Below are positions 4,973 to 60,844 of a DNA stretch of 64,000 nucleotides, in pieces. How positions within the stretch are numbered: position 1 is the stretch's first letter; each line of letters begins with the position of its first letter. The notes below the pieces were generated by a model. The model saw only the letters and a list, made by a program, of their open reading frames with translations, made no database searches and had not been told where the DNA came from. The stretch lies in assembly GCA_964187785.1 (NCBI GenBank), contig OZ076411.1, positions 8,122,001 to 8,186,000 of the forward strand. The letters run 5' to 3'. The DNA is from Amphiscolops sp. MND2022 (taxonomy: Eukaryota). The position numbers were made by a program, and so were the translations under genes.

Positions 4973-5134
4973 TTTCAGAACCGGAAAAAAAACAGCTACA
5001 TAATTGCCACATTCATAAATTTTCTGATAAATCGAGCAGATCTCATAGTTTATATTAACAGCCAAGTTTGAAGAAAGCATACAAAAGCCACAAAAATAAG
5101 TTTCACGAACGATATTTAAAATATTTGATATAAA

Positions 5135-13357: not shown

Positions 13358-13677
13358 TTTCAAAACAGGTTGGGTAGGAATGAAGAACTGAATTGACATT
13401 GATTAGTTATGATCGGACTTGGTTTATGTATTTACAATTGCAATTGATGGTAGAAGTGGTTCAGCATCGGGTATATATAGCACCTCGACAGGTACCTGTC
13501 AGTCAACAAAAATTGTGCGGTATCAAGAGTTGTCTGTTGTTTCGCACAAACAGGTACATCAATGTGCGGCATCAAAAGTTGTGTGAGCGATGTCATCTGG
13601 CAGGTACTTGAACCTTAGGGGTCGTGGCTCATTATTTGATCGTTCCCGCCTTGCGAGCAGGATGGCAAACCTTGATA
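13358..13677 (-). repeat. Copia 3' LTR (320 bp)
   Basis: Direct repeat of 19647-19965 and 26892-27210; flanked by TSD CCTGT. Confidence 0.92.
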
Positions 13678-19600: not shown

Positions 19601-19646
19601 CAGCTAAGTAGATGGCGTCGTCTGAGAAGCTGCTGGGCCCAAAACC

Positions 19647-19965
19647 TTTCAAAACAGGTTGGGTAGGAATGAAGAACTGAATTGAGATTGATTAGTTATG
19701 ATCAGACTTGGTTTATGTATTTACAATTGCAATTGATGGTAGAAGTGGTTCAGCATCGGGTTATATAGCATCGCGACAGGTACCTGTCAGTCAACAAAAA
19801 TTGTGCGGTATCAAGAGTTGTCTGTTGTTTGGCACAAACAGGTACATCAATGTGCGGCATCAAAAGTTGTGTGAGCGATGTCATCTGGCAGGTACTTGAA
19901 CCTTAGGGGTCGTGGCTCATTATTTGATCGTTCCCGCCTTGCGAGCCGGATGGCAAACCTTGATA
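19647..19965 (-). repeat. Copia shared middle LTR (319 bp)
   Basis: Preceded in element orientation by a G-run PPT (gcggggg) and followed by a PBS at 19633-19646. Confidence 0.92.
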
Positions 19966-22900: not shown

Positions 22901-22972
22901 GCACAAACGACTGGCACCCAAACACGTGAAGATGTGAAAGGTCAGGCTTGCTTCCGTGAAACATCTCAAAAG

Positions 22973-25538: not shown

Positions 25539-25540
25539 TG

Positions 25541-26818: not shown

Positions 26819-26877
26819 CGTGATCTGCGCTGGTTAGGCTGTGATCAGCTAAGTAGATGGCGTCGTCTGAGAAGCTG

Positions 26878-26891
26878 CTGGGCCCAAAACC
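26878..26891 (-). promoter_or_regulatory. Primer-binding site GGTTTTGGGCCCAG (half-tRNA-iMet type)
   Basis: Abuts the 5' LTR; one mismatch to GGTTATGGGCCCAG known from Drosophila copia-type elements. Repeated at 19633-19646. Confidence 0.8.
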
Positions 26892-27210
26892 TTTCAAAAC
26901 AGGTTGGGTAGGAATGAAGAACTGAATTGAGATTGATTAGTTATGATCAGACTTGGTTTATGTATTTACAATTGCAATTGATGGTAGAAGTGGTTCAGCA
27001 TCGGGTTATATAGCATCGCGACAGGTACCTGTCAGTCAACAAAAATTGTGCGGTATCAAGAGTTGTCTGTTGTTTCGCACAAACAGGTACATCAATGTGC
27101 GGCATCAAAAGTTGTGTGAGCGATGTCATCTGGCAGGTACTTGAACCTTAGGGGTCGTGGCTCATCATTTGATCGTTCCCGCCTTGCGAGGCGGATGGCA
27201 AACCTTGATA
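26892..27210 (-). repeat. Copia 5' LTR (319 bp)
   Basis: Direct repeat; adjacent PBS and outer TSD. Confidence 0.92.
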
Positions 27211-33700: not shown

Positions 33701-34586
33701 GTTGAATTTTCATTTTTGGTACATGGTTCTCTGAGGAGTCATTCATCATATCTTTGAAACAATTCCAGTTGTCTTGTAATGGTTTGGATTGGTCGTATTT
33801 AATATCTCGAATTGATTTGCACAATTCAGAATTGTTTCCTTTTGAGTAGTTGAGTCGAACTTTGGCTCGACATTTGGTCCAGACGTTGAATTTAACTTTG
33901 AGTAAGCTGTGATCGCCTTTGCCTAGAGGTGGTGTGTACTCAACGTTTGGTTCTAGGGATTTATCGGTGAGTGAAAGATCTAAAAATGATGGTTCGCGGT
34001 TTCCTCTTGCCCACGTTGGCCTGTCGATATGTTGTTTCAGGAATGAGTCCTTGATTGCCTCTAGGAACTGAGGTTCTTTGCTGTTTTCATCATGGTTCGT
34101 AGTGCAGTTGTCCCAGTCAATGTCACGAAAATTCGTGTCACCACAAACAATGTGTTTCTTTCTGTTTCCGCCAATTGCTCTCAAAATTTTGATTAGCTTG
34201 ACGTTGTTCTCATAGGGTGACGAAGGGCTTCTAAATATGGATACAAAAATAATGTTATCTTTCGGCAGGAAAATTTCGTAGGCTTGAATCTCATCGAAAC
34301 CGAATTCATGAGTCACTTCCTTGGTTTCACTGTCACCGCGTATGTATAGTAGCATTCCCCTTCCTTTATCTTCTGGGTCCATATTTTTGTCTTTCAGCTT
34401 GTTGCAGTCAAGTTTAAACCAAATCGGATTCAATTTCAGAATTACAATCATCGGTTTGGCTTCAGTTATAGCTATAATGTGTGGTAAAACGGAGGCTTGT
34501 TGTAGGAGAGTTTTTAGTTCTAAAATTTGTTCAGTTGTCAGGACATCTACATTCCCGAACCAGACGTTGAGTCGATAACACAGTCG
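27752..34586 (-). mobile_element. 5'-truncated CR1-type LINE (APE endonuclease + RT) with a 4x internal 1308-bp tandem repeat
   Basis: APE motifs (AITE, IFRSP, CGDTNF, LDLSLT, GDH), RT (YRPISLT, DFQKAFD, FADDAK), and an (ACAGGTTC)x4 tail at 27751-27782. TSD ATAATTCA at 27744-27751 and 34587-34594; the empty site is seen at about 36325-36335. Confidence 0.93.
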
Positions 34587-34756
34587 ATAATTCAAGTCGA
34601 TAACATTTCGGCGAACACTGTAGAAAGTATTATTTGCTTGCTTAATTCTCTCATCTATTTGGGACAAAGTTCAAATCCGGAGAAATAAGTATTGCCATAT
34701 CTTTAAAAACTTCTGACGGGATGAAATGTTGATTGTTCAGGGGAAAATTCTGTCCA

Positions 34757-36481
34757 CTGAGCATTGATCGTGACAAGAAATAACTTTCGATGATGACATC
34801 TGGAAAACAAAACTTCTTAGAAAAAGCTTCCCAACTGGATAAAATTTTCAACCGGAAAATTTCATTGGATAGAAATCCACCGGCAATCCCAGGCGAAGTG
34901 TACGCAATCACTGAATTTCGAGGAACAAATTTGAAAGATGACAAAACGACAAAATGCATTTTGTTTTCAGCGTTTAGAAACTCGATTGTTTCCTTCAGCA
35001 GCAAAAAACCACTCCCATTCCTGTGTCCGACCACCATTCGTTGGAGTGAAAACAAAACGAAGCGTGGATCGCAGATTACAAGCAAAGTATCAGTGAAACA
35101 TATTTTTAGAAAATATTCAACGCCAGAAACAAACAATTTACACAAAGAAAGTGATAACTCGCGAAAACTCTCCGATGGCAGGTAACGAAAAAGACACTAA
35201 CGAAGAAGGTATAAACTTCTTTTGATTGAGAACATTCAAGATCACCTGCTCCTAGAAAAACAGGCCTGAAAAAATCTAGGTAACAAAGCCTGATTGATCG
35301 CACAAAGATTAATAAAAAGATTTATCGCAGAAAGAATAATAGCAATCATAATAAAATATACGTTAAAACGAAAAAAATTATAGAACCACAAAAATAAGTT
35401 TCTATGTTGTTGTTTTCTGGATTCCCATTTCTGATTCAATAAACACTTATTCAGGTGTTGCGGCAGTTTTGGCAGTCGGACGCGATTGTCCAAGAGCAAA
35501 TCAAACTTTCATTGTAGAAATTTCTTATGTAGCTCCACATAGTCTAACAGCCGATTTTTGGGACCATCTGAATTAAAGAAGTCCACATAGTGGGGTATAT
35601 GATTTACAACTCTGCAAGTCCTGAAATAAAATTCAGAGCGAGCCCGTTCTGTTCGCAAGGTGGAAAGCTTGAAACTTGTGTGTCTGCGATTGTTTTTCAG
35701 TTTCATAAAGCTTTCTTTCGATTGTATTTTGGTGCCAAATTTTTGAGGGTGGTAGGTTGAAGGAACGGGATCGAAAATCAGAGTTAGTCCTCAGGTCGAC
35801 ATACCAAATTTTTGAATGGGATCGAAACAACTCGCTTCGAAATTTTTATAACGTAGTCAGATGTGTTCACATACTCCTAGTCACCTAGTGCCCTGAATGC
35901 AGGAGCAAAACAAAGCGGAGCGACGTACCATATGGCTATGCCTCAATGTTGCTACTTGGCGAAGGGAGCGAAGCGACCGAGCCATACAACAAATACGATA
36001 AAATTCGACCGCATTCCATTCGATCCTTGCAATTCGATCAAAAGGTTCCACCTCTGACCTTTCGACCAGAAAAATTCGACCTATTTACAGCCACGCAATT
36101 TTTGAGAGGTAAAGATTATTTAGTTGCCAGAACATTGCCAGCGGTAAAACATTGAGTTTCAGCATAAGGTAACAATAACACGAGTGACAATATGCAGCTA
36201 TCCATTTCAAGACGCGTTTTTGGAAAGATTCCAGTTTTTTCATCGAAGCTCTGGAGAGAGAAATTGAGGGAGCTGCTAAAGTGATTTTGGGCAGTGATAA
36301 GGATTTGAAAACGGCTGGATTTGCATCATTATTCAAGTCGATAACATTTCGGCGAACACTGTAGAAAGTATTATTTGCTTGCTTAAATCTCTCATCTATA
36401 TGGGACAAAGTTCAAATCCGGAGAAATAAGTATTCCCACAACTTCTGACGGGATGAAACTTTGATTGTTCAGGGGAAAATT
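34757..36481. repeat. Second, uninterrupted copy of the A+B duplicated segment
   Basis: 34757-36024 matches 10970-12214; 36017-36481 matches 27434-27751 joined to 34587-34751. Confidence 0.9.
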
Positions 36482-41876: not shown

Positions 41877-42076
41877 NNNNNNNNNNNNNNNNNNNNNNNN
41901 NNNNNNNNNNNNNNNNNNNNNNNNNNNNNNNNNNNNNNNNNNNNNNNNNNNNNNNNNNNNNNNNNNNNNNNNNNNNNNNNNNNNNNNNNNNNNNNNNNNN
42001 NNNNNNNNNNNNNNNNNNNNNNNNNNNNNNNNNNNNNNNNNNNNNNNNNNNNNNNNNNNNNNNNNNNNNNNNNNNN
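41877..42076. other. Assembly gap (200 N)
   Basis: Run of N. Confidence 1.
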
Positions 42077-43162
42077 AGTTGTTGTGTAATTTGTTCTGAC
42101 GTACCACATTTAACAATTTTTTAAAAACATAAAATTACAGTCTAAGCTATTAGAGTTTGAGTTTGTTGGTAAATCATTTCGATTTTTGGTTACATTACGA
42201 ACTATGTGACCTCTGTCTTTCACAGTTGTTTGTCAAGTAACCCAAATGTTTCTCAACAGGTTATTAACGCTTCCAATGTTCTGCTGATTTTATAGATTTT
42301 CGGGGTTGAGAGTATCTTTTACGAGCTATAAAACTACATTCAGTGGATGGAAGTTCTTCGTTCTGATATACTGACCGGATGAACTGGTGACTCGAAAACG
42401 TTTCGAGGTTCGAGTGCTGGAGGACTTTTGTTTCCGTTTTCGGAATTTGAAGTTTTAAAGGGTTACAATCGCTGTACTACTACAGATATGCCCTCGGATT
42501 ACTGAACTGCATTAACTTTCTTTGTGTAGCCTTGGTATTTCGAGTTTTTCAACGAACTATGATTTCGAGGATTTTTGAAAAAACAACGCGGTGTGATTTC
42601 GATAAAAAACAAGAAACAAAAACGAATTATTTCAATAAAATAACAACGAGATGTGATTTGGAGTATTATCAACGCCATTACAGACACATCCCGGTAACGA
42701 AATAGCAGGATCCCAAAGATAATTCAGCATTTATTGACAAAGGCTACTTTGAAATTTAAACTATCAGCACTAGACAGTCACCGTACCATCTCTTTTTAAT
42801 TAAATGATTTTTCTCACTAACGTGTTGTTAGTTACTTGGTTAAACCAACCATCTGTTAGTTGGTTTACTAAATCAACCAGTAATTGCTTAGATGGTTACT
42901 TAGCCAGGTACAACTTGTTAAAACGTTCCTTACTAATTAGGTGGTTAATTTAGTGAAAGTATAAATAACAGTGCGAGAAACCAAAAAACAAAGCAAGTTG
43001 TTCGTACATAGAAATAAAAGACCCTGCCAATGAAGTTGAATTCTTTTTTTACCCGGTCCATATGTCCCGGGTCGGTCGTTTCAACCATTCGATCTCAAAC
43101 CAACACGACAAATCAGGTGCTGATTAACACACTGTTGCTATTTATATTAACCACATTAACCA

Positions 43163-43444
43163 ATGTCTGAAACTTGCGCTGTCTGTCAAGAGAATTTTTC
43201 TAACGGAGTGTGGATTCTCCACGACCAGCCTAACCACGTCCTGTGCAACGAGTGCCGTCAAGCCAGGATCCGAGTCCTCGAAAAGTAAGTTTCACAGAAC
43301 CCGTTTTAAAAACTGTTTTCGAAGCTGTTTTCACTTTGATGAATAACCATTGTGATTTACAGGGAAACCACTTACCGGGCCTTTCGGGTGGAGTGCCCTC
43401 TATGCAGAAAAGATGACTTCCCACTCATCATAAAGCGGTCATAA
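43163..43444 (+). CDS. 67-aa RING-variant protein, two exons (43163-43284, 43363-43444), apparently intact
   Basis: MSETCAVCQENFSNGVWILHDQPNHVLCNECRQARIRVLEK-ETTYRAFRVECPLCRKDDFPLIIKRS*. 78-nt intron GTAAGT…TTTACAG, phase 2. Confidence 0.8.
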
Positions 43445-43530
43445 ACATCATAAAGGCCAGTTGTCGTGGACTAAACTGTTTGATTCAACTTTTTTAAATT
43501 TGAAATGAATTTGAAATTCAATCTCAAAAC

Positions 43531-44325
43531 AAAAACAACGGGACGTGATTTCGATTGTTTTCAACAAAAACAACGGTATATGATTTAGGATAATTCCGAA
43601 AACAACAACGGGATGTGACTTGGATTTAATTTCAAAAGAAACAACGAGATGTGATTTAGGACAATTACAAAAACAACGGGATGTGATTTCGGATAATTTC
43701 AAAAAAACAACTGGATGTGATTTCGATTGATTTCAACAAAAAACAACGGATGTGATTTCGGATATTTTCAAAAAACAACGGGAATTTTTTTGATTGATTT
43801 TAACAAAAAACAACGGATTTTATATCGAATATTTCCAAAGAACAACGGGATGTGATTTCGATTAATTTCAACAAAAGCAACGGGATGTGATTTCTATTGA
43901 TTTCAACAAAAAACAACGGGATGTGATTTCGAAAATTTCAAAAAATAACAACGGGATGTGATTTCGATTGATTTCAACAAAAAACAACGGGATGTGATTT
44001 CGGAAAATTTCAAAAAATAACAACGGGATGTGATTTCGACTGATTTCAACAAAAACAAATAATGGAGTGTGCTTTCGGATAATTTCAAAAAACAACAACG
44101 GGATGTGATTTCGACTGATTTCAACAAAAAAAACAACGAGATGTGATTTCGAAGAATTTCAAAAAAACAACGGGTAGTAATTTTGATTGATTTTAACAAC
44201 AAACAACGGGGTGTGATATCGAATCTTTTCAAAAAAACAACCGGATGTAATTTCGATTGATTTCAACATAAACGTGATGTGATTTCGGATAATTCGAAAA
44301 CAAAAACAACGGGATGTGATTGCGA
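43531..44325 (+). repeat. Tandem array of motif AAAAACAACGGGATGTGATTTCG with variable A-rich linkers (array 1)
   Basis: About 20 units of about 30-40 bp between the convergent RING and JmjC genes. Confidence 0.95.
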
Positions 44326-44347
44326 GTGTTTTTAACAAAGTCGCGTT

Positions 44348-47300
44348 TCATTGTTGAAGCCATTTCTTGATGTCGGCCCAGCGCAGATCCGTCATTGTCT
44401 CTGAATAATAGTAGAGAAACTCATGCCATGGGTGCGATGTCTGCGATAGGCGATTGATTATTTCAAGCATCTTCCGAAGAGCGACTTTGCTGTTTGGGTC
44501 CGAACAGTATCGGTAAGACCACTCGCGGTATAGATGTATGACTACCAATGGTGCGAAATGAGGAAAGCTGAACTGATGTTTGAAGCCGTCCTTGATCCCC
44601 TTCTCGAAAGCCATAAATATGTTTTTCCACAATGAAATTACATTCAAACGCAATACTTTCCTCAGGGGTATAGACAAAGTGCATCCACCCACTCGGTAGG
44701 AAAAGACAGTCAACTCTTCTGAGCGCTACATGACGAACTGTCACTTGGTGATGGAAGCCAAAAAAAGTAGATGTTTTGAAGTCACTTCGTTGCCATTTGT
44801 CGAAAAGTTTTTGATTGCTTTCATTGTTTTCCAAAATGTAAAAATGTTTTCTGCCCTTGACAACAACGTAAAAAACAGATGTTCCTGTGAAGTCTTGATG
44901 CCAATTTGTTTGCGTTCCAGCCTCTGTCAGAAGCAAGTAATTACTGATTCCCGCTGTGAAATCATATTGATGTCGAAGAAAAGTGGGCAAAGCAGCCTTC
45001 ATGCGATGTCCATAAGAAATATTGCGAACGAGGTCGGGAGAAGAGAATTTATAGGACATATTGTTTAGATGGCCTTCAATGTCCAAATCGATCACGTTCA
45101 TTGGATGATAATCTGCTTGAAGCGTCTGGTTCTCGTTGTGAGTCAGCAGATCCATCAAATCAAACTCGTCCTCGACTTCTTGCAGAGAAGAAAAGCAAAC
45201 GTTTATCTTTCTTGTTAAAGGAAAGCCGTCCAAAACTTGACGAAAGCTCAACTCATCTTGGGGAATTTCAAGGCCAGGGAGAAGGTTTGTTCCATTCCGT
45301 ACCACAGCTGGTTTTAATTGACGAACACGCAATTCTGCTACTTCTTGAGAAGAAACATCTAAATCGTTGGTGGCGTCCTCCACGGCTGAAGATATAAACT
45401 GGTAAAATTGAGTAGAGCCAATTTCTACATCTTCGGGGGCAATCGCTGTGAAGCTTGTGATCCCAAGTTCTTCCTCGCCAGGTTGGATCTGAACTAAAAA
45501 TGATTGTTCTGCTGTTGCAAGTTCTTCCTCGCCAGGTTGGATCTGAACTAAAGTTGATTGTTCTGCTGGTGCAAGTTCTTCCTCGCCAGGTTGGATCTGA
45601 ACTAAAGTTGATTGTTCTGCTGGTGTAAGTTCTTCCTCGCCAGGTTGGATCTGAACTAAAGTTGATTGTTCTGCTGGTGCAAGTTCTTCCTCACCAGGTT
45701 GGGTCTGAAGTGAAGTTGATTGCGTTTGAATGTCCTTGCACTTCGCAGTTACTTGATGGCGAGTCAAGTCATGGCGCCTCGTTAACACAACTCCGCAAAA
45801 CTCGCACACGAACAAGTCTTTCTGTTTTTCTGAAAAAAACTTCTAAATGACCATTGCAAACGTTTTCTCTTCAATAAACAAAGTTACCGGGAGTTCACTA
45901 GATTTGCAAATTTTGTTTTCGACTAGTATTTTTTGAATTTCTAGAAACACACTTTTAGGTATTCAAAAAACTACGCGATAATGATACAGTTGGCTCTACT
46001 CAAAAACTGAAACTTGGTCGAATTGTCACAACAAATGACACGGTGTATTATCAAAACTTTGGATTTACTAGGTGGGGGAGACTCCAGGCTTTTGGGCTCG
46101 ATTCCTTGCCTTTTCGCAGCTTCACATCTCTGCAAGCAAGTCTTCTTAGACAAATGCTGCTTCAGACGTGTGGTGGTTGCGCAAACTAATCCACACTCGG
46201 GGCAAGTACAGTTTAGAACACTCTGGGACTTCCTATTCTGTTGCGCTGAAAAAGCAATCCTCTTTCAGATTTAAAAAAACTGAATAACAATACTGAAAGC
46301 GTACGCTTTTAAGTTTCTTGTTAGATATGTAAAAAGAAATATATTTATATGGACAATGACGTTTTAAAATGACAACTTAAAATCCTTGATGCTTTGAAAT
46401 GTCACAATATCAATTTGAAGATGTTGTGATTCCGAGTCAACGTGGTATGGTTGAGTAAAAAAACAACGTGATGTGATTTATCTTTTCAAAAAAACTTTAC
46501 AAAATGTCAAGTATTTTGAACGAAAAAACAACGGGATGTGATTTCGAGAAAAATTTAAAAAAAAAACAACGGATGTGATTTCGAGTAATAAAGAAAAAAC
46601 AACGGGATGTGATTTCGAGAAAATTCAACAAAAAACAACGGGATGTGATTTCGAGAACGTTCCACAATCGAAACAACGGGATGTGATTTCGAGTAATTCC
46701 AACAAAAAAACAACGGGATGTGATTTCGAGTAATTTCAACAAAAAAAACAACGGGATGTGATTTCGACAAAACTCAATAAAAAACAACGTGATGTGAGTT
46801 CGCAAAACGTTTCACGAAAAAAACAACTGGATGTGATTTCGAGTAATTTCAACAAAAATACAACGGGATGTGATTTTGAGTAATTTCAACAAAAAAAACA
46901 ACGGGATGTGATTTCGAGAACGTTCCACAATCAAAACAACGGGATGTGATTTCGAGTAATTCCAACAAAAAAACAACGGGATGTGATTTCGAGTAATTTC
47001 AACAAAAAAAAACAACGGGATGTGATTTCGACAAAACTCAATAAAAAACAACGGGATGTGAGTTCGCAAAACGTTTCACGAAAAAAACAACTGGATGTGA
47101 TTTCGAGTAATTTCAACAAAAATACAACGGGATGTGATTTTGAGTAATTTCAACAAAAAAACAACGGGACGTGATTTCGAGAAAATTCAATAAAAAACAC
47201 AACGGGATGTGATTTCGCAAAACGTTCCACGAAAAAAAAAAACAACGGGATGTGATTTCGAGTAATTTCAACAAAAAAACAACGGGATGTGATTTCGAAA

Positions 47301-47717
47301 CGTTCCACGAAAAAAAAACAACGTGATGTGATTTCGAGAACGTTCCACGAAAAACAACGGGATGTGATTTCGAGAACGTTCCACGAAAAAAACAACGGAA
47401 TGTGATTTCGTGTAGTTTCAACAAAAAAAACAACGGGATGTGGTTTCGAGAAAATTCAATGAAAAAACAACGGGATGTGATTTCCAGAAAATTCAAAAAA
47501 ACAACGGGATGTGATTTCCGGTGATTCCAACAAAAAACAACGGGATGGGATTACGAAAAAGTTCAACGCAGAAAACGCAGTTTCTAACTTTATTCTGAAT
47601 CGAAAACCTATTTTAAATATAATCAAGCTTACCCTGGCAAGACGCTTCATGTCGATTGTAGTACCATCTTTTGTTGGAGTCGAACTCTTTGAAGCAGTGA
47701 GCACAAGTGTACGTCAT
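44348..47717 (-). pseudogene. 3x C2HC zinc finger - 18-aa repeats - JmjC (KDM2/KDM7-like) gene; exons 47717-47633, 46245-46069, 45829-44348; one frameshift near 44620
   Basis: In-frame phase-1 splices (CAGG|GTAAGC; TTTCAG|CG; CCTA|GTAAAT; TTTCAG|AA). JmjC motifs TNWHQDFTGTSVFY, KGRKHF, LPSGWMHFVYTPEES retain H-x-D…H. The C-terminus continues in ORF 44348..44713 (FSFPHF). Confidence 0.85.
46459..47540 (+). repeat. Motif array 2, filling intron 1 of the ZnF-JmjC gene
   Basis: About 30 units of AACAACGGGATGTGATTTCG. Confidence 0.95.
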
Positions 47718-48699
47718 TACGTTCTGATTTGGAATATCTTGAATGACCAAATGATGGGGGAATGATGACCTGATGACAGTTGCTGTAGGTTGGTCAAAAT
47801 TTAGTTGATTAAACAAAAAGATAGAGGGTTGATGATCTGAAGACAGTTACTCTAGGATGATCAAAAGTTAATTGAATATTGTAAATGAAGGTGAAATGAA
47901 CTGATGACAGTTAGTCGATAGTTCCTTCCAAATAGGAGAGTCCTAGCGCTTCTCCAATTTGTAGTAGTTGTACTAAGTACTGTAAAAGTTTGTTTCAGGA
48001 TTTAATTGAGTTAACACAAAGTTAACGGAGCAAATCTGAAAACGTCTTGGTCGCTTTGAGGACAACAGTCAAATGAACATCGAATTCTTATTGTCCTCAA
48101 TACTTCTTTCCAGAATATTCTAGAACATTCGATTACTTCACAACTTTTCTATTCCGCTGCGCATGACTCAAAGTAGTCCCAATGAAAAGCAACGCGGAGT
48201 GATTTGTTTATTTAATTAACAACTGGTTACCTTTTTCTAGTCAATTTATTTGTTATTTTCGACGTTACTTTTGATTTCTGCTGCGAAGTCCCTGACTTTG
48301 TTCGTTTAAAAGTTAGCAAGAACAGTTTCTAGCATGAAATTAGTTTGCAAAAATTCGTTTGCATCACTAAAGCTTCTAGAACATTGTGTAAACCTTCAGA
48401 CGTAAACCTTTAGGAAATTGTAAAAATTATTTCCCGTTACTAGTTTTTGTTTAAGAATCTGATAGATACTGATAACTATTTCCTGTTTTCTGCTCGTTTT
48501 CTTTGAGGTCTCAGGTGGTTAAGAAATTTAGGGTTAGGATAAGAATGAATTATCGGTATCTGTTTTTAGTTGTTTCCGTCTTTTCGTTTTGGGGATTTCT
48601 TTGTTTCCGTTTTTCTTGTTTGTCCAGGTATCTCAGTTGTTAAACGTGTAATCAACGTGCAACGAAGTACAATGAACAATACATTTATCAAGTGACAAG

Positions 48700-49250
48700 T
48701 TGCATGCAATTACATATTATACACTCACGTCCAATTTGCTTGCGTAGACGAATTTTTACTAATTTCTTCACTCCCAAACATTTCTTTCACTTCAGGAAAC
48801 TGCCTAGTTCTGTATTTGATTTGATGAACTCGTCTATTATCCAGCACGATTCAAACGCAAGTTTGTTAGACGTGAGTGTATATTTGGATTTCCTGAGTTT
48901 TGATATGACTTCTTTCAGACAGACAATTCTGAAGATTCTTGCTTTCTTTGTTTCGGTTCCATGTTTCGGTTCCATGTTTCGTTTCAATGAGCTGTAAATG
49001 TAGAGTTGGGTAATAGAGGTTGAAGAAACCATAAATCAGCCGAAATTGTTGCTCGTGTTGGGCAATGGTGGATGAACACCCGCGAGATATAATTGTAGAG
49101 TTGGGTGATAGAGGATATCTATTGAAGAAACCATAAATCATCCGAAGTTGTTGCTCGTGTTGGGCAATGGTGGATGAACACTCACGAGATACAATGGTAG
49201 AGTTGGGCGATAGAGGGACGACGTAGATGCTTGCAGCCAGGTTGGGTTAT
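48700..49250 (-). pseudogene. Unidentified broken ORF with a ~33-aa tandem peptide repeat
   Basis: PLSPNSTI(V/I)SR(E/G)CSSTIAQHEQQ(L/F)R(M/L)IYGFFN twice, followed by frameshifted coding-like sequence (ORFs 48787..49032 and 48866..49141). Confidence 0.4.
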
Positions 49251-50899
49251 AAGGAAATATTTCGTAAAATAACAGTTCAAAACTTCGGAATCACAGAAAA
49301 TTCTGACATGAAATTCAGTTCACAATACAATAAGTATCACAAACACCTCAGAATCAAAAATGAGTTTTAGACTTCTGGAGAGTGTCTTACAAAAATCAGA
49401 TTGTTGGAAAAAATGTTTTGAATGTACAATTCAATAATTTCATCCCTGGCTGCAATTGTGACCGTCTGTGGGTTTCCTCATTGTTTCCTCAGCACTAACT
49501 GTTTGTAGAAACAAAGAAATGAAATTCAGCCGGGAGTGGCCCAAGTCAAAAACAGAAAGGTTGAGAAAAAATATGTATAGTGTCAAATACACTAAGGTGC
49601 ACAACACCGTTGGAAAAACTGATGCAAAGAAAGTATATAGAATTAGCAATATAGCCAATTAGCGGCCGCGCAATAGTTTTTATTACGACTAGAAAAACTC
49701 CCTTTATTCTCAAAAAGCTTAAACCTTGCAAAAAATCCCGACTTCCTTATTGACCTAATTTAGAGAGGGCTTTGTCCTGTCTCCTGAATACGACAGCGGC
49801 AAGCTTGATCTTCGTGTAGAGTCTGAGGTACTCGTCGTTTTTCAACGTGATTCCGGCCTCCTCACATCTCTTCTTAGTTTCCAACTCAGAGGCAGTCCCT
49901 CTTGTATCTTTGAACAGGGAGCAGGCCTTCTTGGAATCCTCGCTCCATTCGGGAAGACCCTTCCCGACTCTGAAGTTGGACATCGAAGTGTGGAACTTGG
50001 TGACCGCTTTGCCAACCGGTGAATCCCTTGGTGAGTTCCATGAATCCCGTTTTGGTGGGGCGCGAGGTATTTGTTGAGATTGTGACACCAGAGGCGTTTG
50101 CTGCGCACGAGGCAGTTGCTGCGCAGTCGCTGGAGGGGCCTCATGCATCGGGGGTGTCCTTACGGTAGATGTTTGAAAAGAGTCCCCGCCCAGATTAAAT
50201 CTGGCGACAGTCTCGACCTTCTGTAAACTGGGATAGAGTACTGGAAGTTCGGGCGACTCATCTTCCAAATCTGAGTCCAGCCGTTCATCAGGTGGGGCTT
50301 CTGACGATTTCTCGCTAAGACAGTCTTCGTCGTCTCTTCGATTCGCAAGTCGGTCAGAGTAAATGTCCAGCACGAGCGCTCTTTCTTCTTCCGTGCCGTT
50401 CCGATGCAAGTATTTCTCCCTCGCCGTCTTCTCGCTGTGAGCGGTCTGAGCGACGTGAGCTTTTGTGATACCATCGCTCACCTTGCTTTTTATAACGTTC
50501 CAGAGACGCTCCCAGAACTTCCAAATCGAATTAGCGTTATATCGCACTTTCTCGGGATTGTCTCCAAATAATTCCTGGAAACTTTCTTGGGGACCTCGAG
50601 AAATGCTTGTCTCCACCTTGTTGACGGACGATGCAAAAATGTATGAAGGCTCTGTATTGAATTCTTCGATGAACTTTGCCTTCATGGCCCTCAAAAACTG
50701 CCTTTGATCTGGTTGAAGGAAGATATGGACGGTATAATACTTGCCCGTTTTGTGGCTCGTCGTCAGGGCTTTGTCCGTCTTGTCAATTTCCTCAAATTCT
50801 TCCCAATTGAGGTTGAGAATGGGTCCGGATCTAGGTAAAAAGAATTTGTTCAGACAAGTATTTGGGAAAAATATGTTAAAGGTGTCATCTAGGATCGTT

Positions 50900-53800
50900 T
50901 AGGTTTTCAATTCATTTCAGGTGGTTTAACAAAACTGTTAGATACTTTAGTACACTTTCTCTTATGGGGGGGGGTCTTAAGGAGGATTTGGCTGTCAATT
51001 CAAACTTTCAAAAGTATTGAAATTGATTTCATTCAAAAATTTAAACCCCCTTCTGAACTTTCACTGTGAACTAATTCTTTGTATTGTTTTCACTGTTTGA
51101 ATGCTATCCATTGTGTTTTATGAAACTTTCTCCTAACAACCGGTGGCGGGGTGTGGAATAACGAACTGAATATAGATCATAAAACTTTTTGGGACTTCCG
51201 GTAAAACCCCCATTCCCCCCAGCGATTTATCCCCGTTACCAAAAGTCCTAAAAAGTTTCCTTATTGCTTCTAAAGTTCTGAAGTAAGACAATGGAATTTG
51301 TTGTTAAATGTTTGCTGGATTTTGCTTCGTTTTTATTCAATTCATTTCACGTGGTTTAACAAAATTGTTAGATACTTTAGTACACTTTCTCTTATGGGGG
51401 GTCTTAAGGAGGATTTGGCTGTCAATTCAAACTTTCAAAAGTATTGAAATTGATTTCATTCAAAAATTTAAACCCCCTTCTGAACTTTCACTGTGAACTA
51501 ATTCTTTGTATTGTTTTCACTGTTTGAATGCTATCCATTGTGTTTTATGAAACTTTCTCCTAACAACCGGTGGCGGGGTGTGGAATAACGAACTGAATGA
51601 AGATCATAAAACTTTTTGGGACTTCCGGTAAAACCCCCCATTCCCCCCAGCGATTTATCCCCGTTACCAAAAGTTCTAAAAAGTTTCCTTATTGCTTCTA
51701 AAATTCTGAAGTAAGACAATAGAATTTGTTGTTAAAGGTTTGCTGGATTTTACTTCGTTTTTATTCTGAAGTTGAACATCGAAGTGGGGAACTTGGTGAC
51801 CGCTTTGCCAACCGGTGAATCACTTGGTGAGTTCCATGAATCCCGTTTTGGTGGGACGCGAGGTATTTGTTGAGATTGTGACACCAGAGGCGTTTGCTGC
51901 GCACGAGGCAGTTGCTGCGCAGGCGCTGGAGGGGCCTCATGTATCGGGGGTGTCCTTACGGTAGATGTTTGAAGAGAGTCGCCGCCCAGATTAAATCTGG
52001 CGACAGTCTCGACCTTCTGGAAACTGGGATAGAGTACTGGAAGTTCGGGCGACTCATCTTCCAAATCTGAGTCCAGCCGTTCATCAGGTGGGGCTTCTGA
52101 CGATTTCTCGCTAAGACAGTCTTCGTCGTCTCTTCGATTCGCAAGTCGGTCAGAGTAAATGTCCAGCACGAGCGCTCTTTCTTCTTCCGTGCCGTTCCGA
52201 TGCAAGTATTTCTCCCTCGCCGTCTTCTCGCTGTGAGCGGTCTGAGCGACGTGAGCTTTTGTGATACCATCGCTCACCTTGCTTTTTATAACGTTCCAGA
52301 GACGCTCCCAGAACTTCCAAATCGAATTAGCGTTATATCGCACTTTCTCGGGATTGTCTCCAAAAATTTCCTGGAAACTTTCTTGGGGACCTCGAGAAAT
52401 GCTTGTCTACACCTTGTTGACGGACGATGCAAAAATGTATGAAGGCTCTGTATTGAATTCTTCGATGAACTTTGCCTTGATGGCCCTCAAAAACTGCCTT
52501 TGATCTGGTTGAAGGAAGATATGGACGGTATAATACTTGCCCGTTTTGTGGCTCGTCGTCAGGGCTTTGTCCGTCTTGTCAATTTCCTCAAATTCTTCCC
52601 AATTGAGGTTGAGAATGGGTCCGGATCTAGGTAAAAAGAATTTGTTCAGACAAGTATTTGGGAAAAAATATGTTAAAGGTTTCATCTAGGATCGTTTAGG
52701 TTTTCAATTCATTTCAGGTGGTTTAGCAAAACTGTTAGATACTTTAGTACACTTTCTCTTATGGGGGGGTCTTAAGGAGGATTTGGCTGTCAATTCAAAC
52801 TTTCAAAAGTATTGAAATTGATTTCATTCAAAAATTTAAACCCCCTTCTGAACTTTCACTGTGAACTAATTCTTTGTATTGTTTTCAATGTTTGAATGCT
52901 ATCCATTGTGTTTTATGAAACTTTCTCCTAACAACCGGTGGCGGGGTGTGGAATAACGAACTGAATGAAGATCATAAAACTTTTTGGGACTTCCGGTAAA
53001 ACCCCCCATTCTCCCCAGCGATTTATCCCCGTTACCAAAAGTCCTAAAAAGTTTCCTTATTGCTTCTAAAGTTCTGAAGTAAGACAATGGAATTTGTTGT
53101 TAAAGGTTTGCTGGATTTTACTTCGTTTTTATTCAATTCATTTCAGGTGGTTTAACAAAACTGTTAGATATTTCAGTACACTTTCTCTTATGGGGGGGTC
53201 TTAAGGAGGATTTGGCTGTCAATTCAAACTTTCAAAAGTATTGAAATTGATTTCATTCAAAAATTTAAACCCCCTTCTGAACGTTCACTGTGAACTAATT
53301 CTTTGTATTGTTTTCACTGATTGAATGCTATCCATTGTGTTTTATGAAACTTTCTCCTAACAACCGATGGCGGGGTGTGGAATAACGAATTGAATGAAGA
53401 TCATAAAACTTTTTGGGACTTCCGGTAAAACCCCCCATTCCCCCCAGCGATTTATCCCCGTTACCAAAAGTCCTAAAAAGTTTCCTTATTGCTTCTAAAG
53501 TTCTGAAGTAAGACAATGGAATTTGTTAATAAAGGTTTGCTGGATTTTACTTCGTTTTTATTCTGAAGTTGGACATCGAAGTGTGGAACTTGGTGACCGC
53601 TTTGCCAACCGGTGAATGCCTTGGTGAGTTCCATGAATCCCGTTTTGGTGGGCGCGAGGTATTTGTTGAGATTGTGACACCAGAGGCGTTTGCTGCGCAC
53701 GAGGCAGTTGCTGCGCAGTCGCTGGAGGGGCCTCATGTATCAGGGGTGTCCTTACGGTAGATGTTTGAAGAGAGTCCCCGCCCAGATTAAATCTGGCGAC

Positions 53801-54700
53801 AGTCTCGACCTTCTGGAAACTGGGATAGAGTACTGGAAGTTCGGGCGACTCATCTTCCAAATCTGAGTCCAGCCGTTCATCAGGTGGGGCTTCTGACGAT
53901 TTCTCGCTAAGACAGTCTTCGTCTCTTCGATTCGCAAGTCGGTCAGAGTAAATGTCCAGCACGAGCGCTCTTTCTTCTTCCGTGCCGTTCCGATGCAAGT
54001 ATTTCTCCCTCGCCGTCTTCTCGCTGTGAGCGGTCTGAGCGACGTGAGCTTTTGTGATACCATCGCTCACCTTGCTTCTTATAACGTTCCACAGACGCTC
54101 CCAGAACTTCTAAATCGAATTAGCGTTATATCGCACTTTCTCGGGATTGTCTCCAAATAATTCCTGGAAACTTTCTTGGAGACCTCGAGAATTGCTTGTC
54201 TCCACCTTGATGACGGACGATGCAAAAATGTATGAAGGCTCTGTATTGAATTCTTCGATGAACTTTGCCTTCATGGCCCTCAAAAACTGCCTTTGATCTG
54301 GTTGAAGGAAGATATGGACGGTATAATACTTGCCCGTTTTGTGGCTCGTCGTCAGGGCTTTGTCCGTCTTGTCAATTTCTTCAAATTCTTCCCAATTGAG
54401 GTTGAGAATGGGTCCGGATCTAGGTAAAAAGAATTTGTTCAGACAAGTATTTGGGAAAAAATATGTTAAAGGTTTCATCTAGGATCGTTTAGGTTTTCAA
54501 TTCACTTCAGGTGGTTTAACAAACTGATAGATACTTTAGTACACTTTCTCTTATGGGGGGGGTCCTAAGGAGGATTTGGCTGTCAATTCAAACTTTCAAA
54601 AGTATTGAAATTGATTTCATTCAAAAATTTAAACCCCCTTAGTTCTGAAGTAAGACAACGGAATTTGTTTTTAAAGGTTTGCTGGATTTTACGTTTTTAT
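50900..54700. repeat. ~430-bp intronic sub-repeats interleaved with ~1.8-kb duplications of the YR exon
   Basis: Near-identical units at about 50910, 51330, 52700, 53130 and 54500 (last one truncated). Confidence 0.85.
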
Positions 54701-55254
54701 TCAAGAAGTGTTTTCGGAATCTCATGAAGTTAGTTCAGTTATTCAACTCGTCACCCGATAGGATCCCCCCTGTCAGCACAATGTAAATTCTCTGGTAATG
54801 TAAATGGTTTAATTAGGTTGTTTAATACGCGTCACTATGTAATCATTGTGATACAGCGCGTGCAGCACACGTTGTAAAACAATGTAATGTATTATAATAT
54901 GTCTTGCATACAACGTGTATTAGATTGTACGTGCACTTCAATGCGTGCTCACGGTGTATGTTTTGCATATACTGGAAATCACTACTAAATCCAGCGCATA
55001 TGGTTTCAAACACGTAATTTACAATCAGAGTTTTTTCCACGAAATTGCTCAGGTTTTTTTCAATTTTGTGCTTCTTAATCTCCTCACTTCCTTTCGGCAG
55101 AATACAGTTTTCGTTACCAATCAATTTTAGGTCTATAAAAAGACTATTTTTATAGAGACTCTTTTTAAAAAGATGTTATTTAAAAAGTTGCAGTTATCTG
55201 GCTGCTGCTGAGAAGTGGACAGCTTAGTCTTTGGATTTTTTATATACTCTTAAA

Positions 55255-55815
55255 TTAAAACAATGAAAAAAACAGCGAGATGTGATTTCGAGTAGAAATA
55301 ATAAAAAAACGACGTAATGTGATTTCAAGTAGAAATAATAAATACAACAGGTTGTGATTCCGAGTATATTCAACAGAAAAACAACGGGATGTGATTTCGA
55401 GTAAAAACAATGAAAAAAAAACAACGGGATGTGATTTCGAGCAGAAATAATAAAAAAAAACAACGGCATGTGTTTTCGAGTAGAAACGATGGAAAAAACA
55501 ACAGCATGTGATTTCGAGTAGAAACAATGAAAAAAACAACGGGATGTGATTTCGAGTAGAAATAATAAAAAAACAACGGGATGTTATTTCGAGTAGAAAT
55601 AATAAAAAACAACGGCATGTGTTTTCGAGTAGAAACATGAAAAAAAAACAAAAGGATGTGATTTCGAGAAGAAACAATGAAAAAGCTAACGGGATGTGAT
55701 TTCGAGTAGAAAAACAAATTAACGGGATGTGATTTCGAGTAAAAAAAAATAAAAAACAACGTGATGTCATTTCGATTAAAACTAATGAAAAAACAACGGG
55801 ATGTGACTTCGAGTA
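55255..55815 (+). repeat. Motif array 3, inside intron 2 of the SET-YR gene
   Basis: About 14 units of AACAACGG(G/C)ATGTGATTTCGAGTAGAAA. Confidence 0.95.
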
Positions 55816-58800
55816 GAAACGATGAAACGAAACAACTTTACCAACCTTGTATTGATCCGAGCTTGTAGGAGGAAAAAGTTGAGTGCCTGTTGCTTCCTGT
55901 ACGATAGTGTATTTTGTTGCATATTTGTAGTTAAAATTTCCAGCACTTGTCGGTACCTTAACCTGACTTGTTCATTGCTGGGTACAAGAGCTAACATTTT
56001 TTCTGAAGCTTGATGCGCATTCAAAGCTGCTGGACTGAAGGCTTTGCGTGCGGCTGCTATGGCAGCTTTCATCCGGTCAAATCCATCGTCACATTTCGCA
56101 ATCTCCCTGTTGAGGTAGCATTGATCCACGAAAAGCTTGAAAATCGACAGATAGTTCAGCATAGTCTGCGGCTTCAGGTTCTTCGCAGTCTTCATCTCAA
56201 GACACCCCTTGACAAGAAGCTCGGGGGATCTCAGAGAGCGCGTCATATTGAAAATCTGCGCCATCAGTTTCACAATGCCCCCCCTGTCAAGGCTCCACTT
56301 GCGATTCTCACCACTGCACTTGGAAATATCTGTCTGAAATTGGACGAAGCGCTCAGCAACATCCAAGTCTCTCGAGCTTGGCAAAAAGTTTGACTTCGCT
56401 GCCGCTCTGATTTCTGCTGGCAACGAACTTCTGCTCTCCGGGTTGGGCACTTTGACGATAGTGGAACAGTCACACTTGTTGACGTGCTTGTGGGTGATTA
56501 TAGAGGCAAATCGTGTGAAGCACTTTGCACAATCATAAACAACTTTCCTCTGGGTCTTGGCGTTCCTGCATCTATAAAAAGCCAAGCAGAAACGTCGCGG
56601 TCTTTCGTCAAAGATGTCTGATTGCCTTTGAACCAGATGCCTATCGATTCGATTTATCTCTGAATGGCCGCTGTACTTCGCCGTGAATCTTGAGCGGCAA
56701 CCTCAATTTCCTTAGGAAGGGGCAATTGACCCTCCTCTGGTGTTGCTGCAGCAGGGGGGCTTAGTTGAGCGGCCACGTCAAGTTCCTCCGGAAGGGGCAA
56801 TTGATCATCCTCCTGTGTTGCTGCAGCAGAGGGGCTTAGTTGAGCGGCAACCTCAATTGGCGTAGTCTTCTTGGACGCACACGAAGGGCATTTGCAGTCA
56901 ACATTGCCAGGCCCAAAGTAGTCATCTGTGTAGGATACTGTTAGTTCTTCCCCCGCACCAAAGCTCTTTTTGTCTTTATAAAGATAAATGTTGAATTTCT
57001 CTCACCACGACAAATGTACTAGCAATTTGGTTCGCAGTTGTGATTTATGAAACTGTCTGGGCCCAACATAACCATGTCGTTGATTCCCGGTCTTTTGAAG
57101 TAGGAGAACTGGCTGGATCGCGGCAGCTGGTCCTTCTTCACTTTCGCACCGAATCCCTTCATACCCCCTATTTCGGTGTCCTTCTGAATGTCTTCTCTCG
57201 CAACCACTGCCATCTCTGAGAAACTAGTGTAGTTTCCATACGATGGCATATTAACATATTTCACAAACTCCATGCTCTGAATGTAACTTGTGTAAATCAT
57301 AGAATACAATTTTTTGTGCTTTTTGTCGCTCGAAATCAATTGTTCCACATCAGGGTGTTGTTGACAGAGTTTGTGACTTTTTGTGAAAACATCGTCAATG
57401 AGCTGCGCGGTAATTTTTGCATCCAAAAAACCCAGAATCTGCCAGGCTTCGTAGCAATGCTTCGTTATCAAATAGTCCTAAAACATTTCAAAGTTAGGTC
57501 AAAAACGACAATTTTTAATTCCATCACAAGTTTTGACGTTTGCTAATTACAGGTTTGGTTCTCTCGAACTAAGCTTTCCTGAGAAGCAGTATTTGGCAAA
57601 AAAAGAAAAACTACCGTTTTAAAATTGCAGACGTTTACTGCTTACTGAAAACAAAGTGTCTTAAAACAGGGAGCAGAACAATCCCATATTTTCAGATGCC
57701 ATTTTAAAGTCGATGAAAACATACAAAACGTTTAGAAGTTTAATTCTTTGATTTGCCAATGATTACCTTTGTAAATTCCTCCGCCTTGTGGAATTCATTT
57801 TGAACCACGCTCACTGTTGCCCTCTTACACTGCTCATTGTGATTAGGAATCGTTTCCAGGTCAAAAGCGTAATCCATGAAAAGGAAAGTTTCAGAGCTTG
57901 CATAGCTAATGCACTGGACTACTGGGGGTCTTTCAGACGTCAAAACATGGGCGAAGTTTGCCATTGCAAGTAAGACTGGGAGTGGGTCAGTCTTCTCAGC
58001 ATGTTTTCGGCAGTCCACATTTTCTGGCACATCAACAAAAGTAATAGATGGCTCCTTTCTCACATTCTTCGATTGTCTTGGACAGTCTTGCGTTTCCGAC
58101 TGTTCTGCAAAAGTCGAACTTGAGATTGGGAGTGGATCTGTAACTGTGTTGTTTCTTACCCTCTTTGATTGTCTTCGACAATCTTGCGTTTCCGACTCTT
58201 CCGCAAAAGTCGAGTTTAGGACTGAGAGTGGCTGTGTAACTTTTTCAAGGTTGTTAAATATTTTTTTCACGCAAAAGTTTGAACAGGCCTCTCATTGATA
58301 ATTATTGAAAAACACACTACCGTGGAAAGCATTGTGTTATTCACAACGATTTATCATTTTTTGTCAAATTTTTCGTTCTTCAAAATTTCAACAAAGGAAC
58401 ATAAAGCATGAAAGTTATTCAAAGAGTTTGTTTTGGAAGAATGTTTGGAAAAACAGTTTTCAAAATCGTTTTTTTGGCAGTTAATTCAGGTGTTTTTTTC
58501 AACAACCTTGTTCGGATGGCTTCGCATTGTTTTTTGTGGCTATCGGGGAGATTTGAAGTGCTCTTCCTCTCAGTTGACGGGGCATTTTAATGAATTGAAG
58601 TTTGGAATGGGAAACTAAGATAAAAGTGATTGAGAATTTCAAAAGATTGAAGATTCAAAATAGTTGATCGCAGAAGCAAAGTTGGTTCTGTGAAGTCGAA
58701 TTGGTTGAACGATTGGAGAAAAGATTTTCTCTAGTTTTTAGACGGATGTAGTTGTGTTAAGATTGAGAATTTCAAGTGAATGAAGATTCGTAGTTGATCG

Positions 58801-59442
58801 CAGAAGCGAAGTTGGTTTTATGGGTTCTTTCGCGGACGTCTTCGATATTTATACCCTGTTAATTACTTGTTAATCAATAAGTTGGTGTCAAGTACTCGAC
58901 CCTCCTACAGGGCCTTCGGTCATGGTTGATTTATATGGACTTTTTCATCACATCCAAAGATCCCCAAGCGTACTTTTACATTTTAAGTTGTCACTGATAA
59001 TTGCTTCCTTCCTATTATCCTCGTTGTGGCACAAGTCAGTGCTTTAAATTGTTACGCCGAATAATTATAAATTGGCATGTCCTAATCAACCAAACTACTG
59101 CGTAAATGGTGTGGTCACGTGACTAGGCAACAAGTCGAAGCAATGGCGAAATAGTTTTTGAACCCCCAAATAAATATGGCGAAATAATCCAACTTAAGGT
59201 GATTTATGAAAGTCTTTCACGAGTCTTGAGACGAGTTGTCAAAACGATATTCCTATTACGGGTAACCATTTGTCAGATACTTGGTGAACCAAGAAATGAG
59301 AAAAACAAGTATTCTTGCAATTGTACTGTGAATATATCATGGTGAGTTGGCCAGATTGGTAAAAGTGACAATAGGACCCGAAAAATATTTCATTGCTAAA
59401 CCAAACTCATTTTCTGAAGTCGTTACTTATTGAAAACAAAGA

Positions 59443-59575
59443 AAATCACACCGCGTTGTTATTTCTTAGAATTACTCCGACTCACATCGCGTTGTTGTTT
59501 CATTTCAATACACGAAATCACACCGCGTTGTTATTCCATTGAAATACTCGAAATCACACTGCGTTGTTATTTCAC
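59443..59575 (-). repeat. Inverted-orientation copies of the cassette motif (GAAATCACACCGCGTTGTT); another at about 60746
   Basis: Reverse complement of AACAACGCGGTGTGATTTC seen at about 42585. Confidence 0.8.
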
Positions 59576-59752
59576 TGAGATAGCTCTCTGAAAATATTTT
59601 TTAAACTCTAGAAAGCGCTAGTCTTCGACAAGAATTTGCTCATTCAAGATGAAAAAGATGAAAACAATCAAAAATTATTTCTTCATAACTTTTAAATAAA
59701 AAATTAAATAAAAACTAAAAAGGCATAATAGTTTCCAGACACTAAGGGTTTT

Positions 59753-60327
59753 TCAGACACTTGCGTCAAATTTGACACGTCTTGGGTGTTCGCTGGGCAA
59801 ATCGTCGGCTCGACAAGTTTTCTCTATTGCTGCCTTAAGCGGTTTGCTAAAACCAGCTATGGTCACGTGGACGCCGTCTTTTCTAAACCAGTTTCTTTTT
59901 TCGTCAGCTCTGAAAAAGGGGACATCGTTCCTCGCGCAGGCCTTGCACAACTCCTCCTTATGGTTCCCTGGAAGGGCCGGCCGTTTACCGATAACGGTTA
60001 ACATTTCCACGCCTCTTTGCTCCAGTTCACTCCCCACTTTCCGAAGGTGAACTGCTATTTGTTCTGGGTTTTGTCGATACTTCTTTAAACTTTGGAACCT
60101 TGGGTCTTCTGTTGGGAAACTGTTGAGTAAAATATCTGCATAGATAATTATCAGTCGGGGAGACTTTTTAGAGCAAGGGCAAAAGGGTTTTGCCACCTCC
60201 GCGGGTTTTCTTTCTCGTGAAGGGTCCTTGCACCAGAGGCCCAGATGCATTCTGTATTTTTCTCAAAGCCACAGTCTTTGAAAATCCTGCCGTTGGAGGC
60301 AGCCACCACAATAATTTTTGACATCCT
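59753..60327 (-). pseudogene. SGNH/GDSL-like protein with one frameshift near 60165
   Basis: MSKIIVVAASNGRIF…WASGA…(frameshift in A-run)…IIIYADILLNS…RKDGVHVT. The block V DGVH motif is present. Confidence 0.55.
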
Positions 60328-60844
60328 GGCACGGTATTGATAATGAGTGTTTGATTTTAGGAGTATGATCAATTTTATGATTTCAGTGAAAAGTTTGAAT
60401 CAGCGAATGGATAGATTCAAACAATTTCTCTCTGGTGAAGACTCTTTTTTGACTCAATCAAGTCCATGAAAACCAAATGTACGCAAATACTCCGTTTATA
60501 CATTTATACATGGCAGGTATAATATTAATCATTACAATGAACATATAATTTGTACTTTTCCATCCTTGCCGGCTACATTTCCATCGTTGCCAGCATCTTT
60601 GCCAACAAAGTCTGTTTTTCTATTCAGAAGTTCTTTCACTTTAGGTGAAAACTAGAAGCTTGAAGGCTTGAATGAAGATGTTGGAATTTCTCCCCCTAAT
60701 AAAGTTTTTTTGAAAGGGCGGTGCTTGGGAGTTGAAAACACTTGAAATCACACCGCGTTGCTATTTCATTTAATAGTCTCGAAGTCACGATATTGTATCA
60801 TTAAGATATAAAGTTATACATATTTATTACATTCATAAAAGTCT

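Follow-up and report, generated by a model that had tools for sequence, protein, structure and literature searches.

The question raised by this locus is why a gene encoding a JmjC domain of the KDM2/7 type, preceded by three C2HC zinc fingers (ZnF), should lie in the neighbourhood of a Suv4-20-like SET domain in the genome of Amphiscolops sp. MND2022. The gene sits on contig OZ076411.1, within positions 8,122,001 to 8,186,000 of the forward strand; this whole 64,000-nucleotide stretch is referred to below as the window. A first-pass annotation had read the two domains as an "eraser" and a "writer" that might act on the same residue. It overlooked that the entire unit is a transposon and that the copy in the window is dead. 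The reading toward which we lean, with modest confidence, is that the ZnF-JmjC gene is a cassette borne by DNA transposons that lie in microsatellites and probably encode a tyrosine recombinase (YR), and in which the fingers would bind a motif repeated across the element and the KDM7-type JmjC domain would strip histone marks so that the element stays expressed.

The gene is encoded on the reverse strand, with the following parts:

47633..47717 (-): exon 1 of the ZnF-JmjC gene (85 nt), with the ATG and finger 1 (CxxC-x14-H-x3-C); conserved in element families B and C
46069..46245 (-): exon 2 (177 nt), with finger 2 (CxxC-x12-H-x5-C)
44348..45829 (-): exon 3, with finger 3, an acidic repeat linker, the KDM7-type JmjC domain and a helical C-terminus
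45464..45722 (-): 54-bp coding tandem repeat within exon 3, 4.8 copies of an acidic 18-aa unit; longer in sister copies

As had been proposed, the three exons form a single reading frame joined at GT/AG junctions, with both introns in phase 1, and each exon contributes one C2HC finger (in reading order, MTYTCAHC...RHEASC, CPEC...QHLSKKTC and CEFC...RHQVTAKC). The three fingers, each with its own exon, are kept in the distant families B and C, where the junctions are also GT/AG and in phase 1. Pfam scans of exon 3 returned only Cupin_8/JmjC and a weak C2H2 match, bearing out the earlier statement that PHD and CXXC domains are absent; exons 1 and 2 encode short C2HC fingers, not PHD, and downstream of the JmjC domain Pfam matched no KDM2-type CXXC, PHD, F-box or leucine-rich repeat (LRR). 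The iron triad is intact, nucleotides 44900-44892 encoding H-Q-D and 44681-44679 the distal His. A frameshift suspected at about 44620 proved to be a real break, its exact nature being an 11-nt deletion near 44614, upstream of the C-terminal helices. The missing segment is present in the DNA of 10 of the 11 sister copies in the same family (family A), and the eleventh (L004) has it in the protein; a homopolymer or sequencing slip is ruled out because the deletion is absent from the sisters. Exon 3 is open from finger 3 to the stop in 5 of the 11 sisters, and in intact copies the open reading frame (ORF) ends about 95 residues past the JmjC core.

The JmjC domain is of the KDM2/7 type, as first suggested, is borne by an element, and is far from the non-histone hydroxylases. 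Among PDB sequences the best match is PHF8, both for the window domain (E 5.8e-19) and for an intact sister (E 3.9e-23), and 14 of 14 PDB matches are KDM2/7 proteins. Alignments of the window and intact-sister domains match PHF8 at N189, I191, Y234, L236, T244, H247, D249, F250, Y257, K264, H319 and N333. Present among these are the 2-oxoglutarate residues T244, K264, N189 and Y257 along with the H-x-D...H iron triad, and the methyl-lysine pocket Y234, F250 and N333, whose roles in PHF8 are described in the available text of PMC13632499. That text lists H3K9me1/2, H3K27me1/2 and H4K20me1 as KDM7 substrates and excludes trimethyl marks. The intact JmjC domain was modelled with a mean confidence (pLDDT) of 85, and a Foldseek search with this model, whose underlying alignment included canonical KDM2/7 rows, returned PHF8 (1.8e-23), KDM2A (9.7e-21) and JMJD6 (5.1e-12). 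A non-histone hydroxylase of the JMJD5/6/7 kind was rejected, with all sequence matches being KDM2/7 and the fold match 1.8e-23 for PHF8 against 5.1e-12 or weaker. No Pfam JHD match was obtained in the element JmjC.

The genome's sole Pfam JHD match is instead a multi-exon KDM7-like host gene on C4 (53.015-53.037 Mb) that carries the canonical FHIDFGGTSVWYH motif. Its exon scores 140 bits against itself and at most 52 bits against the other 147 scored matches. A genome search with the window JmjC yielded 1544 first-look candidates, and 150 of the 150 that were scored match at 46-100% identity, 12 of them in family A. The possibility that the window gene is the sole host orthologue is ruled out by this separate single-copy gene on C4 and by the multicopy nature of the element JmjC. 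In a careful tree of 34 rows, element JmjC domains and 7 PHD-less proteins form a clade (support 100/99) attached among KDM7-like rows (90/94), at a point where long branches meet. Likewise, a quick tree, from which 29 of 149 candidate proteins were dropped for short coverage and the canonical rows then thinned, sets element JmjC and PHD-less proteins apart from canonical KDM2/7 with support 100. The PHD-less KDM7-type proteins that group with the element clade are P0029, P0031, P0033, P0034, P0037, P0039, P0047, P0060 and P0147. An approximately unbiased test rejected a scenario in which families A, B and C alone captured the KDM7 of this host (p-AU 0.0003); it did not reject a joint clade with the host gene, that is, an older origin near the host lineage (p-AU 0.098). 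A phase-2 intron of families B and C lies one codon off the host gene's intron, which is suggestive, not identical, and was not used as evidence. Scans of viral contigs with P0031 and the intact family-A JmjC, and of metagenomes with P0031, gave no confirmed homologue; a homologue search with P0031 returned only P0031 itself and P0033.

The gene is part of a transposon whose remaining features in the window are:

42077..60807 (-): family-A SET-recombinase transposon copy, collinear by blastn (42079-60807) with copies on C3, C5, C6 and C12
49747..50830 (-): first of three copies of the likely catalytic exon of the recombinase, with Trp in place of the second catalytic Arg; Atlas match on the sister exon
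51750..52626 (-): likely recombinase catalytic exon, duplicate 2; a stop, Arg changed to Trp, C-terminus cut
53558..54419 (-): likely recombinase catalytic exon, duplicate 3; the Arg codon is a stop
55846..57477 (-): Suv4-20-like SET, linker, zinc-finger-like region and N-terminal recombinase half; a single ORF in sisters
57740..58291 (-): acidic repeats, probably an exon that lies upstream in the SET-recombinase gene; putative splice
59753..60262 (-): tentative GDSL/SGNH-hydrolase-like ORF; sisters have a longer open frame

Family-A elements are about 19-20 kb long. The left end of the window copy lies in or beside an N gap (41877-42076) and its 5' end is cut at 60807, where sisters extend about 0.9 kb more to the inverted end. 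Sister ends consist of a roughly 20-nt inverted repeat inside (TA)n; the 20-nt pattern has 12 exact matches in the genome versus 0 for a reversed control, and 8 of the 12 have a TA run directly outside. Insertion within microsatellites makes target-site duplications unreadable. In sisters the SET domain, zinc-finger-like region and first recombinase half form one ORF that is spliced to the catalytic exon. The product is likely a tyrosine recombinase, judging from conserved R, K, R, H and Y positions and from an Atlas match (0.92) to a cluster in which 48% of the members carry Phage_integrase; Pfam and NCBIfam gave it no match. No reverse transcriptase was seen in the element. Inspection by eye of the ORFs listed for families A, B and C revealed no recognisable capsid, packaging ATPase or DNA polymerase B, no dedicated capsid search having been made, and PHROGs searches with four family-A ORFs gave only weak matches of unknown function. 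The sister of the GDSL-like ORF has an Atlas match (0.94) to a cluster with Lipase_GDSL_2 on 30% of members, and the ORF has no match in 10 related SET-recombinase stretches. The window copy is dead: it carries the 11-nt JmjC deletion, a stop after NHNCEPNC and a frameshift in the SET-recombinase ORF, loss of the second Arg in all three catalytic exons, and loss of the 5' end. The ratio of nonsynonymous to synonymous substitution (dN/dS) between its JmjC and that of the nearest decayed sister is 1.0. In the window the catalytic exon has been triplicated (49747-54635) along with intron repeats of 427-429 bp.

Selection on the cassette is visible when families are compared. Family B (about 38 kb) and family C (at least 44 kb, its left end not located) are very young, with copies on different chromosomes that are 99.2-99.6% identical, and the right ends of both lie in (TG)n. 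In both, the three fingers and the JmjC recur (50-58% identity across the main exon), and the SET and recombinase that come after them are different. Synonymous sites are saturated between families; where dS is measurable, dN/dS between families is about 0.09-0.17, and within family B it is 0.11-0.29. The cassette is thus under purifying selection across the three families. The recombinases of B and C match XerA below the cut-off (E 1.7e-4 and 6.3e-5) and have no detectable likeness to that of A, with a profile comparison probability of 1% from shallow profiles. By tblastx, A resembles B and C in the ZnF-JmjC gene, the motif arrays and a single conserved block; the SET-recombinase is not among the shared parts. 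Elements with unalike recombinases thus share the same cassette, which appears to move between lineages. Divergent zinc-finger JmjC genes of 36-38% identity were also seen on C8 (46.853-46.865 Mb; L154-L155) and C4 (70.217-70.219 Mb; L153), on or beside SET-recombinase elements of 40% identity without the motif. In addition, the family C copies L054 and L056 contain a (TAG)n tract in which SET-recombinase elements of the family-A type, or what remains of them, lie nested.

A short motif, SCGTTGYTDTT, is repeated throughout the cassette-bearing elements, and in the window it is arranged as follows:

43528..44339 (no strand assigned): array of 23 units of 36 bp, just downstream of the JmjC domain
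46523..47566 (no strand assigned): array of 28 units of 37 bp, in ZnF-JmjC intron 1
55258..55836 (no strand assigned): array of 15.5 units of 37 bp, in the recombinase intron
59443..59573 (no strand assigned): short array of 3.7 copies, in opposite orientation

The window element holds 48 copies of it, another family-A copy 55, B 33 and C 20, against means of 0.15-0.35 in shuffled sequence. The motif is absent from four control stretches and occurs 0-1 times in each of 10 related SET-recombinase stretches. The layout is in 36-38 bp arrays in A and C; in B the motif is dispersed in 17 clusters and is the top repeated 8-mer. A 24-nt version has 119 matches in the genome, and the 100 of these that were listed all fall at places with family-A ends or genes. 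That the motif tracks the cassette suggests, as indirect support, a sequence-targeted enzyme, as the first-pass annotation had supposed. In one family-A copy (C5, 5.443-5.473 Mb) the motif array has apparently expanded over about 22 kb.

The SET domain has a different history. The best PDB match of the family-A SET is indeed Suv4-20 (E 2.5e-12), and it shares LGPA.FINH.C.PNC and a Cys-rich post-SET region with that enzyme. The Suv4-20 residues Phe160-Ser161, Ala178, Ile181 and Tyr217 are kept, with numbering mapped by motif register, and at Trp174 and Phe191 the inferred register places Met and Tyr. In the available text of PMC3874154, the Trp174/Phe191 pocket demands a monomethylated substrate, and the Phe-to-Tyr change equivalent to Phe191 abolishes activity in Suv4-20h1. 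The likeness to Suv4-20 stands, but the SET ORF (57022-57477) is about 9-10 kb from the ZnF-JmjC gene, is broken, and is not a stand-alone gene, being the N-terminal part of the recombinase ORF. In 10 stretches around family-A-type recombinases (40-70% identity), SET was found in all 10, with no JmjC match in 8 and a divergent JmjC in 2; five of the JmjC-free relatives are whole elements of 8.4-10.3 kb with inverted ends in (TAG)n. Because SET is constant and JmjC mostly absent in these relatives, the SET-recombinase is the core and the ZnF-JmjC an add-on, and SET belongs to the transposase and is likely not a dedicated partner of the JmjC domain. The SET domains of B and C, which we take to be SET8-like, are given just as SET by Pfam and have no match among PDB sequences.

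These observations lead to the mechanism that we favour. The C2HC fingers of intact copies would bind the motif repeated across the element and thereby bring a KDM7-type demethylase to it. The JmjC domain would then remove repressive mono- and dimethyl marks, most likely H3K9me1/2 to judge by the KDM7 family, which may allow the recombinase gene to be transcribed and so counter silencing. Several points weigh against this proposal. The motif was defined after inspection of A, B and C, and it may be a passenger sequence or be recognised by another protein of the element or host. Two relatives with divergent JmjC have neither the motif nor a strongly repeated 8-mer, and in family C a second motif is repeated just as often. 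The fold match to PHF8 is not independent, since the model alignment held canonical KDM2/7 rows. The recombinase model is poor (pLDDT 58), and a fold search with it was uninformative (best Z 5.5; TelK shared its Z of 4.6 with unrelated helical matches). Animal transposons are usually marked by H3K9me3. KDM7 enzymes do not act on trimethyl marks (PMC13632499, available text). Finally, the C2HC type and long linkers of the fingers depart from a canonical tandem C2H2 array, and Pfam gives finger 3 a very weak zf-MYST match (E 0.099), so the fingers may bind nucleosomes or proteins instead. An active demethylase whose fingers contact nucleosomes or partners, and which acts untargeted or on excised circles or insertion sites while the motif is a passenger or is bound by something else, would account for the finger type, the zf-MYST match and the motif-free divergent relatives. 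We regard it as unlikely, although it is the alternative deserving most attention: it does not readily explain many separate motif clusters in three families with unalike recombinases, including the recombinase intron and both ends, or the near-absence of the motif from close recombinase relatives that lack the cassette.

Pairing of writer and eraser on H4K20, or on the recombinase itself, to switch the element or transposase between states draws on the presence of SET in all JmjC-bearing elements examined, on the Suv4-20 match of the family-A SET, on the resemblance to SET8 that we see in the SET of B and C, and on the removal of H4K20me1 by PHF8 (PMC13632499, available text). We consider such a pair improbable. 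A pair acting on one residue is left unsupported because SET is fused to the recombinase and is present in JmjC-free relatives (8 of 10), and the cassette lies beside a different SET in B and C, having moved between SET types; moreover, Suv4-20 makes H4K20me2, which is not a KDM7 substrate reported in the text available to us, and the Trp174 and Phe191 positions differ. Least credible of all, and very improbable, is a cassette without function for the element, whether a captured gene that is neutral or the decayed remnant of an endogenous virus. The broken state of the window copy and several sisters would fit it, as would giant-virus insertions that carry reader-less KDM4-like JmjC genes (10.1101/2024.01.08.574619, available text), but it conflicts with purifying selection in three families, with the conservation of exons and catalytic residues, with the lack of any capsid or polymerase recognised by eye in the ORF lists, and with the rejection of host KDM7 capture by these elements alone. 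Returning to the targeted demethylase, a broader proposal, which we put forward tentatively and hold to be somewhat short of probable, is that YR transposons of animals trade a portable anti-silencing module of three-finger, KDM7-derived demethylase and DNA address, the address being spread in arrays over any element that takes up the module. Such a module would be a natural sequence-programmed epigenome editor and an animal counterpart of VANC with an enzyme of its own, and would belong to a wider clade of mobile JmjC genes that extends to other organisms.

Several known systems can be compared with these elements. Like the KDM7 family (PHF8/KDM7B, KIAA1718/KDM7A, PHF2), the element protein has the JmjC fold, the iron triad, the pocket residues for 2-oxoglutarate and methyl-lysine, and a helical C-terminus; unlike it, it lacks a PHD, in whose stead stand an acidic linker and three C2HC fingers, has no Pfam JHD match, falls in a long-branch clade apart from canonical members, and is mobile and multicopy. 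CryptonV elements are YR transposons that insert in microsatellites (PMC8869645, available text, citing a Repbase report), and the elements here resemble that published description in their likely YR, the lack of a visible reverse transcriptase, and insertion in microsatellites: (TA)n for A, (TG)n for B and C at their right ends, and (TAG)n or (TAT)n in 6 of 6 relatives with ends printed. They differ in adding the ZnF-JmjC cassette, motif arrays, a GDSL-like ORF and a hepatitis delta virus (HDV)-like ribozyme candidate, and in length (19 to >44 kb). Classical Cryptons of the fungal type lack inverted ends and have direct repeats of 4-6 bp (PMC3212892; a classification list is in PMC5753468, both as available), whereas these elements have inverted ends of about 20 nt. 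VANC proteins of Arabidopsis VANDAL transposons are anti-silencing proteins with proposed targets in tandem arrays inside the element (PMC5735166, available text). Similarly, the system here joins a transposon-encoded protein with a candidate target motif arrayed within the element, binding being predicted; VANC induces loss of DNA methylation, whereas the element protein holds its own histone-demethylase domain, and no VANC-like match was found in the element. Endogenous giant viruses of Amoebidium carry KDM4-like JmjC genes with a proposed role in avoiding silencing (10.1101/2024.01.08.574619). These too are mobile, intron-bearing and stripped of host reader domains; they are, however, KDM4, viral and JmjC only, with no added zinc fingers, and the element gene is KDM7-type and on a transposon. 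The system is a member of neither the VANC nor the Amoebidium KDM4 group. Suv4-20 (KMT5B/C) and the family-A SET have in common LGPA.FINH.C.PNC, the post-SET cysteines and the Phe-Ser motif, and part ways in the recombinase fusion and the Met/Tyr substitutions of inferred register. In the literature searched, as far as its text was available, neither a KDM2/7 JmjC on a transposon nor a Crypton fused to SET is reported, the search not extending to Repbase Reports or to most subscription journals; a 2026 preprint on transposon-encoded regulators (10.64898/2026.08.24.746577) has no JmjC, SET domain or Crypton in the available main text.

Escape of transposons from chromatin silencing is poorly documented in animals, and the sequence-specific cases turned up by our literature search are from plants. 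Gene content and intron structure point to an animal host here. If the fingers bind the motif and the enzyme is active, this would be an animal case of a transposon that encodes its own targeted histone eraser, and cassettes of this kind would move between unrelated recombinase lineages. The system is compact, comprising a small protein, a candidate 11-nt motif, very young cassette copies and cassette-free relatives that serve as natural controls.

Other observations concern the elements and the remainder of the window. A block of about 80 nt, around 80% conserved, occurs in A, B, C and 10 of 10 recombinase relatives (L023:9012-9100 (+) and 15 other distinct copies); it is missing from the window copy and lies about 0.3-0.4 kb beyond 60807 in sisters. 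One strand can be parsed as HDV/CPEB3-like, following what we take to be the layout of those ribozymes, with P1 (first pair G-U), P2, P3, P4 and a candidate catalytic C. Across 14 of the 16 copies 99.4% of cells pair, P1-P3 are invariant, and there are two compensatory P4 changes, both from one sequence. Rfam gave no significant ribozyme match for the block (CPEB3, E 2.8), and its orientation relative to the genes varies among families. Elsewhere in the window, adjacent long ORFs on the reverse strand at 4073-6625 resemble cyclin C and a Pus10-like pseudouridine synthase. A C2H2 zinc-finger ORF lies at 10129-11250, and its N-terminal part is partly duplicated 24 kb away at 34651-35196. Pieces of a Copia-like long terminal repeat retrotransposon, each present as several tandem copies, occupy 13600-26900, and a long interspersed nuclear element ORF for endonuclease and reverse transcriptase spans 27955-34670, with the endonuclease block tandemly repeated in a 1317-aa frame.

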